From an uncultured Candidatus Saccharibacteria bacterium (GTDB lineage Bacteria; Patescibacteriota; UBA1384; JAGGWG01; CAZAJM01), in NCBI GenBank assembly GCA_964485625.1, contig CAZAJM010000001.1, positions 29,803 to 93,802 of the forward strand: a stretch of DNA of 64,000 nt, given 5' to 3'. Within the stretch, counting starts at the first letter, position 1, and each line of letters starts with the position of its first letter. Both the position numbers and the translations under genes were made by a program. Below the pieces are notes generated by a model that was given only the letters and a program-made list of their open reading frames with translations, made no database searches and had not been told where the DNA came from. Of this stretch, positions 58,232 to 61,068 are shown piece by piece.

Positions 58232-59068
58232 ATGTCTGAACAGACAAAAGTCGTTGTCCTCAACGAGGCCCCCCATAATAGGATAGAGAAGGGCCTTGCC
58301 TGCTTGGCCAATGCTGGGGTAACCAGTGACCATTGGCAGCAGGCCACCATCGATGACCCGATCGCCCGAAGGTGTGTCGCCTCAGCTCTCAAGGGCGAGG
58401 TAGCTACTCCAATCACTCAAGACGATTGGTTGGAGCGTGAGGCTGAGATCCTCAGCCAGATCTGCGATAGTGGGAAGGGCTCAGGCATGTTCAGTGTCGA
58501 GTCCCTCCGTCCCGCACTGAACCGGGCAGTTGAGGAATGGGGAGAACCCACTGAGCACTGGCGGGTAATCCCCGGTGCCTACACCCTCCCCGACTTGTTC
58601 GAGATTCTCTACCGCTTGGAAGACAAGTGGCAGGAGGATCACAGCGGCAAGAGCTTCCTCTGCGGGAGGCGCAAAGAGGAGTGGTGGCGGACCAGTGACA
58701 CGTACCAGCCTATCGCCACTGAGCTTGGTGTCATGGTCTGCAACCTCGAGACCTGCGCTAACCCGACTGATCTGGACGGTGCCCCCTACTACCTCAACCG
58801 TGAGGAGCAGGAGGCCTGGGTCAAGACCCAGGGAGCGGAGGAAATGATGAGCGCTGAAGAGGTTATCTACCTCTTCATCCGCTCTATTATGGGGCTAAGC
58901 CGCCCTCTCTGGCCTGCCGGTACCATGCGCTGCCGAAACAACACCGGTTCGGGCGGCTCGCTCAGCGTCTATTGGCACGCGCGCGATGGCTTGAGCGTCA
59001 GCGGCTGGCACGATGTTGGTCCGAGTTGGTGCATCGGTGCTCTCCCCCGGAAGTTGGTTTTGGCCTAG
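58232..59068 (+). CDS. DGR variable (target) protein with a C-terminal VR in a CLec/FGE-like fold; strongly GC-rich gene
   Basis: The C-terminal ~36 codons are the VR. The whole ORF is about 55-58% GC against ~38% flanks. GGAGG RBS. No signal peptide or TM. The VR-encoded tail ...GSGGSLSVYWHARDGLSVSGWHDVGPSWCIGALPRK. Confidence 0.8.
   Translation: MSEQTKVVVLNEAPHNRIEKGLACLANAGVTSDHWQQATIDDPIARRCVASALKGEVATPITQDDWLEREAEILSQICDSGKGSGMFSVESLRPALNRAVEEWGEPTEHWRVIPGAYTLPDLFEILYRLEDKWQEDHSGKSFLCGRRKEEWWRTSDTYQPIATELGVMVCNLETCANPTDLDGAPYYLNREEQEAWVKTQGAEEMMSAEEVIYLFIRSIMGLSRPLWPAGTMRCRNNTGSGGSLSVYWHARDGLSVSGWHDVGPSWCIGALPRKLVLA
58945..59053 (+). repeat. DGR variable repeat (VR), 109 nt
   Basis: Identical to the TR at 59417-59525 at all 92 non-mismatched positions. 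All 17 mismatches fall where the TR has A (VR has G/C/T). A GC palindrome GGCCTAGGCC (59062-59071) lies immediately 3'. Confidence 0.85.
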
Positions 59069-59416
59069 GCCCTTGGGGTCTGGGATCTATTGGGTGTTAG
59101 CTCTTGGTTTTTCCGCTCTGCGGATCACCTTGGACTAACGCCCATCTTTTTTTAAATAAAAATATGGTAGAATATAGTTAAGATAGCAATGAATTGGAGT
59201 TTACGGATTCCAATCGCTATCTTCCTGATCTCTTGGAGACAGAGTCCTTAATTTGAATCTGAATTAAGGGGAGTTTTTAAAAAGGGATTAGAGACTTCTT
59301 ACTGTCTGTTTGGCAGGGTTTTGGTAGCTTGAATACTTGCCACATAAAATACAGGGAGGAGTAGCCTTATTTGAGGTCTCAACTCCTGGTGGTTGCAGAG
59401 GACAGATAGTAAATTA

Positions 59417-59525
59417 CGGTTCGGGCAACTCGCTCAACGTCAATTGGAACGCGAACGATGGCTTGAACGTCAACAACTGGCACGATGATGATCCGAATTG
59501 GAACATCGGTGCTCTCCCCCGGAAG
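59417..59525 (+). repeat. DGR template repeat (TR), 109 nt, rich in AAC codons
   Basis: cggttcgggcAActcgctcaAcgtcAattggAacgcgAAcgatggcttgaAcgtcaAcAActggcacgatgAtgAtccgaAttggAAcatcggtgctctcccccggaag. Capitals mark TR adenines substituted in the VR. Confidence 0.85.
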
Positions 59526-59544
59526 TCTCTATTTCTTTTGGAAT

Positions 59545-59892
59545 TTATCTGACAGACCTTATCCAACCTCCCAACATTTTGCCAATCTCTTGGAGCATTT
59601 CTTCCAGAGCTAAATATCTTTTAGTCGGAATTGCCTTAATTTCCTCTCCCATTCTAAGAAGAACTTTTAAAAGATCTAATTTAATACTGGCTTTTTTCAA
59701 GTATTTTAACTTTGTTTCTCTATGAGAATTGTTGCTAGCAGTAATTAAGTATTCCATAATCTCTAATGTAATGTCATCTGTTTTTTGCCCTAGGGTGTAT
59801 TTATTTCTTTTTGGCATTTTTTCAACTACAAACATTAATTCTCGATAGAAATTGTAAGTTTTGGTAACAATAGGAGCTTCTTGATTGCTCAT
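59545..59892 (-). CDS. avd: DGR accessory variability determinant (Avd), four-helix-bundle family, encoded antisense between TR and RT
   Basis: 115 aa. Resembles 23S-rRNA-IVS/Avd four-helix-bundle proteins (YTLGQKTDD..., KLDLLKVLLRMGEEIKAI, C-terminus EIGKMLGGWIRSVR cf. ...VAKMLSGLIRSR). Its ATG overlaps the RT ATG in the palindrome CATG at 59890-59893. Confidence 0.65.
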   Translation of the reverse strand: MSNQEAPIVTKTYNFYRELMFVVEKMPKRNKYTLGQKTDDITLEIMEYLITASNNSHRETKLKYLKKASIKLDLLKVLLRMGEEIKAIPTKRYLALEEMLQEIGKMLGGWIRSVR

Positions 59893-60880
59893 GGCTAAAC
59901 TAATTAATGATATTACTAGTATTGAAAACTTGTTTTTAAGCTGGAAAAATTTTAGAAAAGGCAAACGCCATAAACCGGATGTGCAGCAGTTCGAACGGTA
60001 CCTTGAAGATAATCTATTCCAACTTCGTCAAGAGTTTAAAACGGGCAGCTACAGACATGGTAATTATATCAGCTTCAATATTACTGACCCAAAATCAAGA
60101 TTGATTCACAAGGCTAAAGTTAGGGATCGAGTAGTACATCACGGAGTATACCGTCAACTTTATCCAATCTTTGATAAAGGCTTTATTTTTGACAGCTACT
60201 CTTGTAGAAATAACAAAGGAACTCATAGGGCGATAAAGAGGTTAAGAAAATTTACTATCAAGGTATCCAAAAACAATATAAGAGTCTGTTGGGCTTTGAA
60301 GCTTGATGTTAAAAAGTTTTTTAATAGTGTAGATCAGCAAATTCTGTTAAAGCTTATCTCTAAGAAAATTAAAGACAGAAAAGCTCTAAGTTTAATTGAT
60401 GAAATAATCGGTAGTTTTTCTGTGGATAAAAAATCTCAGAGAGAGAGAGAGAGAGAGTTAAGGGGTCTGCCGATTGGCAATTTGACTTCTCAACTTTTTG
60501 CAAATATCTACCTAAATCCCTTGGATCAGTTTGTAAAGCATGAGTTAAAAGAAAAATATTATCTTCGTTACTGTGATGACTTTGTTATTCTTAGTAAAGA
60601 CAGAAAGCATCTGATTAAGCGTATTTTTAAGATCGAGAAGTTTTTAAGCAAGAAATTAAAATTAAATTTACATCCTGATAAAATAATTCTAACAAAACTA
60701 AAACAGGGCATAGACTTTTTAGGTTACGTTGTTTTGCCACATTCAATTGTTCTGCGAACTAAAACTAAAAAAAGGATGTTAAATATGATTAACGAGAGTA
60801 ACAAAGACTCGTACTTAGGACTGCTCAAGCATTGTGATAGTTATAAATTGAAACAAAGAATAAGAAGTATTTTTGATTGA
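59891..60880 (+). CDS. DGR reverse transcriptase
   Basis: RT motifs: GLPIGNLTSQLFANIYL (the DGR-specific IGxxxSQ replacing group-II QGxxSP) and YLRYCDDFVIL (YxDD). About 330 aa, the size typical of DGR RTs. The track ORF starts at a TTG at 59885. Confidence 0.9.
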   Translation: MAKLINDITSIENLFLSWKNFRKGKRHKPDVQQFERYLEDNLFQLRQEFKTGSYRHGNYISFNITDPKSRLIHKAKVRDRVVHHGVYRQLYPIFDKGFIFDSYSCRNNKGTHRAIKRLRKFTIKVSKNNIRVCWALKLDVKKFFNSVDQQILLKLISKKIKDRKALSLIDEIIGSFSVDKKSQRERERELRGLPIGNLTSQLFANIYLNPLDQFVKHELKEKYYLRYCDDFVILSKDRKHLIKRIFKIEKFLSKKLKLNLHPDKIILTKLKQGIDFLGYVVLPHSIVLRTKTKKRMLNMINESNKDSYLGLLKHCDSYKLKQRIRSIFD

Positions 60881-60922
60881 GAACATTACATTTTTAACTA
60901 TCTGTTTTTTTAACTAAAAAAA

Positions 60923-60997
60923 TCGGGGCACTCGGACTTGAACCGAGAATCTCCACGTCCCAAACGTGGCGCCTTAAGCCAATTAGGCCATGCCCCG
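60923..60997 (-). tRNA. tRNA-Pro (anticodon TGG)
   Basis: Minus strand CGGGGCATGGCCTAATTGGCTTAAGGCGCCACGTTTGGGACGTGGAGATTCTCGGTTCAAGTCCGAGTGCCCCGA. Anticodon loop TTTGGGA. Confidence 0.8.
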
Positions 60998-61068
60998 ATC
61001 TAGAAATAATATAGCAGAAGCTAGGCCATATTTCAATATCTAGTTATTTTGATATAATATAGACACAT

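Follow-up and report, generated by a model that had tools for sequence, protein, structure and literature searches.

Probable Architecture B3 DGR of the CPR type with reverse-strand avd between TR and RT, and simple repeats in the avd and RT genes of its relatives

We analysed a DGR cassette located in a 64-kb stretch of DNA, hereafter called the window. The locus is very probably an ordinary and apparently intact DGR of the CPR/Patescibacteria type with Architecture B3 (probability about 0.87), with the mechanistic part of this reading taken from the Bordetella model. Its core is arranged in the order TR, reverse-strand avd, and RT, without another accessory gene, which fits Architecture B3, and nothing that we found contradicted the CPR-type assignment. 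The preliminary description of this DNA had named a co-directional avd nearby as a finding that would speak against its reading. Avd, RT, and VR each occur only once in the whole 64-kb window, and no such avd was found.

The DGR target gene (58232–59068, plus strand) was taken from the ORF list, encodes 278 aa, and carries the VR at its 3′ end. Profile searches with this gene gave no Pfam or NCBIfam match, and its G+C content was 58–62%, compared with about 33% in avd and RT. The VR (58945–59054, plus strand, 110 nt) stops 14 nt short of the target ORF end and stands in an ungapped register with the TR (59417–59526, plus strand, 110 nt) at an offset of 472. The two repeats were aligned without gaps at 85.5% identity. 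All of the mismatches between them (16/16) were opposite adenines of the plus-strand TR, which requires a plus-strand template RNA. The final 23 nt were the same in TR and VR, as would be the case in an IMH/IMH* element, which this shared end resembles. The avd gene (59545–59892, minus strand) encodes 115 aa, and its stop codon (59545–59547) is located 18 nt from the TR end. The RT gene (59891–60880, plus strand) encodes 329 aa when counted from its ATG. These positions agree with the earlier proposal that avd is encoded antisense between TR and RT.

The minus-strand ORF at 59545–59892 is a genuine Avd. The 115-aa protein scored 92.2 bits against the NCBIfam equivalog model NF033474 (DivGenRetAVD; cut-off 80) and 74.8 bits against Pfam bAvd (PF22296; E = 8.9e-21, cut-off 40). 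An AlphaFold model of the protein, built on 35 homologues, had a pLDDT of 94.7 and formed a four-helix bundle with helices at residues 7–24, 28–53, 58–84, and 90–114. A sequence search of the PDB with the single Avd sequence gave nothing meaningful, and a fold search was needed instead. Using Foldseek, the model was matched to the Avd chains of 4dwl and 8ub7 with TM scores of 0.80–0.89, a probability of 1.0, and an rmsd of 1.5–2.5 Å. The Avd-like character proposed for this ORF in the preliminary description was thus borne out by two profiles above their cut-offs and by a four-helix bundle matching Bordetella Avd.

The RT was identified by its match to Pfam RVT_1 (E = 2.3e-23). Its translation carries LPIGNLTSQ, within which IGNLTSQ fits the DGR-type motif [I/L/V]GxxxSQ. 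The protein scored under the cut-off for every named NCBIfam RT family, including group II intron, retron, and Drt. Its putative assignment to the DGR type rests on the context and this motif; NCBIfam holds no DGR-RT model. Relatives recovered with the RT of the window carry TR/VR pairs. The closest RT loci (41–59% identity) and the named Avd homologues were from Patescibacteria, Berkelbacteria, and Saccharibacteria MAGs.

The first survey of CPR DGRs is said to be that of Paul et al. in 2017. In the searched passages of Wu et al. 2018 (Nucleic Acids Res 46:11; PMC5758913), Architecture B3 is written TR-(avd)-RT, where the brackets mark the reverse strand, and accounts for 90% of their CPR set; start-codon geometry, antisense consequences, and simple repeats are not discussed in those passages. 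Compared with the CPR B3 cassettes as described there, the window has the same set of parts, ordered and oriented alike, and its layout is identical: the target with its VR is upstream, the TR is on the RT strand, and avd is reversed between TR and RT.

We collected 75 related loci through RT from representative genomes and a further 80 through Avd alignment from metagenomes. avd and RT were divergent and head-to-head in 100 of 157 sources, and the remaining orientations of avd included 22 upstream co-directional, 16 downstream co-directional, and 3 convergent cases. The order VR-TR-(avd)-RT, with TR on the RT strand beyond the avd stop codon, was found in 66 of the 69 divergent loci in which a TR/VR pair could be detected. 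The TR end was 329–430 nt away from the avd Pro7 codon in these 66 loci. The gap from the TR end to the avd stop codon had a median of 30 nt and did not exceed 25 nt in 28 of 65 loci, and it is 18 nt in the window. In several relatives, the TR end overlapped the avd stop codon (−4 or −1 nt) or nearly abutted it (0 to +2 nt). The preliminary description had flagged this layout as a departure from other DGRs. This view did not hold, as the layout is the B3 catalogued in the passages of Wu et al. (PMC5758913) and was divergent in 100 of our 157 sources. The TR-(avd)-RT layout of the window is already known and ordinary for CPR DGRs; by itself it is of minor importance and confirms that the window holds a complete, typical CPR DGR.

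We compared the cassette with the DGR of Bordetella phage BPP-1. The two share a DGR RT, adenine-specific differences between TR and VR, and a VR at the 3′ end of the target. They also appear to share a pentamer-type four-helix-bundle Avd, as predicted from the TM scores of 0.80–0.89 between our model and the 4dwl and 8ub7 chains. The order in BPP-1 is mtd-avd-TR-brt, in which avd is co-directional and upstream of TR, and a non-coding spacer RNA of roughly 140 nt follows TR on its 3′ side. In contrast, avd of the window is inverted and fills the whole interval between TR and RT. A second difference is that no conserved spacer structure was detectable by RNAalifold of 61 relatives or by folding of the window.

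We examined the junction between avd and RT. Positions 59885–59900 of the window read TTGCTCATGGCTAAAC. The tetranucleotide CATG at 59890–59893 is common to both starts, with the avd ATG at 59892–59890 and the RT ATG at 59891–59893. The sharing of CATG by the two start codons had been pointed out in the preliminary description, and its coordinates and geometry are correct as read directly from the sequence. The overlap is most likely a by-product of compaction and no signal in its own right. CATG is the only way for two opposed ATGs to overlap by 2 nt. We defined the junction offset as the RT ATG minus the avd ATG and compared 55 unique repeat-free junctions. An offset of −14 was found in 13 loci, −1 (CATG) in 6 loci, +1 (CATATG) in 8 loci, and +2 to +6 in 13 loci, and in 45 of the 55 junctions the distance between the two start codons was between −17 and +6 nt. 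A junction without an intergenic spacer, the norm in this family, can take several equivalent forms, of which CATG is one.

The start codon of RT itself is ambiguous between 59885 and 59891, and the head-to-head overlap with avd is accordingly either 8 or 2 nt. An in-frame TTG is located at 59885, two codons 5′ of the ATG at 59891. If RT starts at this TTG, the overlap would be 8 nt, and CATG would merely be the third codon of RT, lying opposite the start of avd. We regard this as a credible minority reading. A possible RBS for RT, AGGAG (59872–59876, plus strand), which is antisense to avd codons Ala6-Pro7 and was proposed on sequence and spacing, lies 8 nt before TTG and 14 nt before ATG, and the shorter distance would favour TTG. 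The closest relatives also point to TTG: L079, L112, L120, L087, L096, and L141 have only TTG at the equivalent RT start position, and these loci together with L088, L104, and L121 have an in-frame TTG, or ATG, 7–11 nt past the avd Pro7 codon. However, an SD-like motif precedes just 10 of the 37 long ORFs in the window, indicating weak SD use, and the spacing of AGGAG is therefore not decisive for the RT start. ATG is also the generally preferred start codon, and several relatives clearly pair ATG with ATG as CATG or CATATG.

We considered how such a locus would be transcribed. By the Bordetella model, the plus-strand TR RNA would be copied by RT with Avd into adenine-mutagenised cDNA, which would then replace the VR at the 3′ end of the gene at 58232–59068. 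The TR transcript would run on through the antisense avd and possibly into RT. avd and RT are packed head-to-head without an intergenic spacer. Transcription of avd would start from signals lying in the opening codons of RT and would extend into the antisense of TR. The preliminary description had argued that the RNA between TR and RT is antisense to avd and that promoters must be located inside or next to coding sequence. The first point stands for any plus-strand TR transcript that continues more than 18 nt past TR. The logic of the second is sound, applies equally to the translation signals of each gene, and holds for every B3 DGR.

Consensus scans of the window gave candidate signals for some of these transcripts. 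Promoter-like hexamer pairs on the plus strand 5′ of TR (59151–59178, 59310–59337, and 59321–59350) are candidate TR transcript starts. Another promoter-like site (59732–59760, plus strand) lies within avd, antisense to it and 130 nt 5′ of RT, and might serve RT as a promoter of its own. The same consensus scan found no good match to a minus-strand promoter just upstream of avd. Scanning the plus strand of the window from TR to the RT end gave no terminator-like site, and a hairpin between TR and the avd stop codon is absent from the window. As the 18-nt gap contains no hairpin and no plus-strand terminator follows, any 3′ extension of the TR RNA would be antisense to avd and may continue into RT. 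A strong hairpin was found between TR and the avd stop codon in 33 of 65 relatives, mostly without T-runs on either side. We rejected this hairpin as a clear terminator, based on the mostly missing T-runs.

Alternatively, the antisense packing could have evolved as a regulatory circuit that tunes retrohoming, in which the levels of Avd and of TR-RNA/RT are interdependent. This would act by transcriptional interference or RNA duplex formation, through convergent TR-RNA and avd transcripts and overlapping divergent avd and RT promoters. We consider it unlikely. The geometry does force an overlap, since the TR RNA is plus-strand and the avd stop codon is 18 nt off with no hairpin or terminator between them. 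The TR end also abuts or overlaps the avd stop codon in several relatives (−4 to +2 nt), and the junction without an intergenic spacer is kept across the clade. However, compaction in small CPR genomes explains such overlaps without regulation, and approximately half of the relatives (33/65) insert a hairpin, so that tight antisense contact is not universal. The −10-like hexamers that would suit the circuit cluster 16 nt 5′ of the avd ATG (10/67 loci), a peak that can be explained by the conserved N-terminal codons of RT (K-I-Y-K). A leaderless or embedded avd promoter is likewise conjectural: the −16 peak (10/67) is confounded by the RT codons, and the window has no good minus-strand match. 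Antisense regulation of avd by the TR RNA, as suggested in the preliminary description, is possible but unsupported, and compaction remains our reading of the head-to-head junction.

The RNA 3′ of TR in Bordetella is a spacer for priming and scaffolding. If a Bordetella-like spacer is required here, it should be encoded antisense to avd, and the B3 equivalent would bear on the question of how cDNA is primed. We aligned 61 regions from the TR end to the avd start in the RT sense, and RNAalifold gave zero consensus pairs. The TR of the window plus 174 nt folded no better than its shuffles (z = +0.5), and an Rfam search matched only a downstream tRNA-Pro. A conserved spacer RNA like that of Bordetella was thus not supported.

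The remaining alternative, that avd starts at Met20 (59835) to give a 96-aa protein, a 55-bp intergenic promoter region, and no start-codon overlap, follows the gene caller's choice of 59835 on an identical public contig (P0001, 96 aa; L076) and would leave room for divergent promoters, but it is highly improbable because residues 7–24 form helix 1 with pLDDT above 90 in the AlphaFold model, the Pfam and NCBIfam profiles align from residue 7–8 at profile position 2–3, 34 close homologues of 111–121 aa cover 97–100% of the 115-aa form, P7, I8, Q10, K11, Y13, and D14 are conserved at 90% or more with Y16 invariant among close homologues, and an in-frame ATG lies just 5′ of the avd core in 71 of 74 repeat-free relatives. 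The profile alignments, the extent of helix 1, and the full-length homologues thus support the ATG at 59892 as the better predicted start of avd. The automated gene caller appears to have mis-started avd on the identical public contig, where the genes overlap head-to-head.

Simple repeats were observed at the avd 5′ end of relatives. A poly-G tract (7–14 nt) or a (GT)n tract (9–29 nt), both as read on the RT strand, was present in the 5′ extension of avd in 25 of 99 divergent junctions, and these tracts read as PPP or HTHTHT in the called proteins.

The frame of avd differed with the presence of such a tract. An in-frame avd ATG was found in 71 of 74 repeat-free loci compared with 8 of 25 repeat-bearing loci (Fisher p = 1.7e-10), and the latter proportion is the one in three expected for a random frame. 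The tracts were concentrated at the junction, with 25 in 5.8 kb of junction sequence compared with 1 across the remaining 481 kb of these loci. One near-identical pair of loci differing in the length of the avd-side tract was found, L091 and L095. Their flanks are 100% and 98.8% identical; L091 carries (GT)11 and is out of frame, and L095 carries (GT)4 and is in frame.

The window itself carries a repeat inside RT. An (AG)10 tract (60438–60457, plus strand) is located 12 codons upstream of LPIGNLTSQ and is read in frame as RERERE. Judged from its sequence, it is a candidate slipped-strand on/off switch, which would currently be ON in the window. Of 123 unique related RT genes, 20 had a (GA)n tract of 13–60 nt at the same RT site. 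Both halves of RT shared a frame in 9 of these 20 genes, compared with 102 of the 103 genes without the tract (Fisher p = 1.2e-9), and the lone out-of-frame gene without (GA)n has G10 at the same spot. In all of the out-of-frame RT genes (11/11), both halves were open and full-length. Pseudogene decay was rejected as the origin of the out-of-frame alleles, as neither half of RT is interrupted or shortened and the avd cores are intact. Repeats on the avd side and on the RT side never occurred together: 22 loci had the former, 18 the latter, none both, and 43 neither.

Where a repeat is present the frame status looks random, which suggests phase-variable DGRs. We tentatively propose, at slightly short of even chances, that the avd/RT module of CPR DGRs is switchable and that the repeats, as hypermutable tracts, toggle mutagenic retrohoming by slipped-strand frameshifts at avd or RT. 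Contingency loci are known with poly-G/C tracts in Neisseria and Campylobacter and with similar repeats in Haemophilus and Mycoplasma. The DGR tracts are like these in being homopolymer or dinucleotide tracts within a coding sequence, either at its 5′ end or further inside, with lengths that vary between loci and a frame that is on or off. They differ in that the CPR DGR's own machinery (avd or RT) is affected. No publication connecting DGR genes to phase variation by simple repeats turned up in a literature search.

If this proposal is true, a stochastic switch would be placed on top of a hypermutation device, and the antisense packing of avd and RT would belong to the region that controls a phase-variable diversity generator. 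CPR populations would then keep most cells hypermutation-off and a minority on. The reading of DGR activity, and of "broken" RT and avd genes in metagenome assemblies, would also change. The presence of repeats in the DGR machinery, although a side observation, could thus matter more than the layout.

We compared the RT tract among assemblies related to the window. Near-identical pairs of loci differing in (GA)n length were not found among the related loci. The locus of the window also occurs in the runs SRR15425350 and SRR15425351, and the (AG)10 tract has the same length, 20 nt, in the window and in two sister-sample contigs. Two contigs break at the RT (GA)n tract.

The RT gene of the window contains an (AG)10 dinucleotide tract at 60438-60457 (+), which is in frame, encodes RERERE and is followed 12 codons downstream by the motif LPIGNLTSQ. 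The equivalent RT site was compared among related DGR loci gathered via RT or Avd. A (GA)n tract of 13 to 60 nt was found at this site in 20 of the 123 unique related RT genes. The two halves of RT were in a common frame in only 9 of these 20 genes, compared with 102 of the 103 genes without the tract (p = 1.2e-9). The out-of-frame RT alleles carrying a (GA)n tract were intact apart from the frame. From these sequence comparisons, the (AG)10 tract of the window is a candidate phase-variation switch of RT.

The same cassette is present in public contigs from Logan SRR15425351 (L076/L157) and SRR15425350 (L158). The translated RT of the SRR15425351 contig matches the window RT exactly. The (AG) tract is identical in the contigs of these two sister samples, and its length of 20 nt is that found in the window.

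A second type of repeat was found at the 5′ end of avd in the relatives. In 25 of the 99 divergent loci, in which avd and RT are arranged head-to-head, poly-G (7-14 nt) or (GT)n (9-29 nt), as read on the RT strand, lies within the N-terminal extension of avd. Examples at the junction, the region of the avd and RT start codons, are L003:3968-3976, L002:3460-3469, and L014:774-787, and further tracts occur in L082, L085, L091, L095, and L144. These tracts are concentrated at the junction, with 25 in 5.8 kb of junction sequence versus 1 in 481 kb elsewhere. An in-frame ATG for avd was present in 8 of the 25 repeat-bearing loci, as opposed to 71 of the 74 repeat-free loci (p = 1.7e-10). Two loci with near-identical flanks differ in this respect, as (GT)11 of L091 is out of frame whereas (GT)4 of L095 is in frame. 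The avd/RT junction of the window carries neither a poly-G nor a (GT)n tract.

The two repeat types were not found together. Among 83 unique divergent loci, counted with kinship among them ignored, 22 carry the avd-side repeat, 18 carry the RT-side (GA)n tract, none carries both, and 43 carry neither. This mutual exclusion may represent alternative solutions to one function, or it may be a mere effect of clade structure.

In the relatives with a G tract (L002, L003, L004, L005, L007, L009, L010, and L017), ATG, GTG, and TTG are all absent between the tract and the conserved N-terminus of RT. One possible start of the RT ORF in this clade is an ATG that lies opposite the conserved avd His codon of PL[IV]H, on the other strand. 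RT initiated there would overlap the 5′ end of avd by approximately 60 nt, with the tract inside the overlap, and the frames of both genes would then depend on tract length. The other possibility is that RT of this clade has a non-canonical start. Head-to-head overlaps may lead gene callers to misplace the start of avd systematically; contigs of both SRR15425351 and SRR15425350 encode P0001, a 96-aa avd product whose called start is Met20.

At the other end of avd, its stop codon is separated from the end of TR by a 26-60-nt gap in 33 of 65 relatives (for example, L129, L134, L099, and L002; columns 100-180 of alignment A3, which covers this region), and this gap is occupied by a strong GC hairpin of − 11 to − 29 kcal/mol. 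T-runs are mostly missing on both sides of the hairpin, which could be an avd terminator or a DGR RNA element. The window and 27 further loci, in which the gap does not exceed 25 nt, have no such hairpin.

The target gene (58232-59068, +) has a G + C content of 58-62% across the whole ORF, whereas avd and RT are at about 32% and the neighbouring genes at about 35-40%. In 49 relatives, the 500 nt of the target gene upstream of VR exceed the RT gene in G + C by a median of 13 points, and the window is the extreme of this comparison (+ 27 points). A perfect palindrome, GGCCTAGGCC, at 59062-59071 spans the TAG stop codon of the target gene, 8 nt past the VR end, and recalls the GC-rich inverted repeat located 3′ of VR in other DGRs. 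On the RT side, a tRNA-Pro(TGG) gene (60922-60998, −) lies on the opposite strand, 42 nt beyond the stop codon of RT, and marks the boundary of the DGR cassette.
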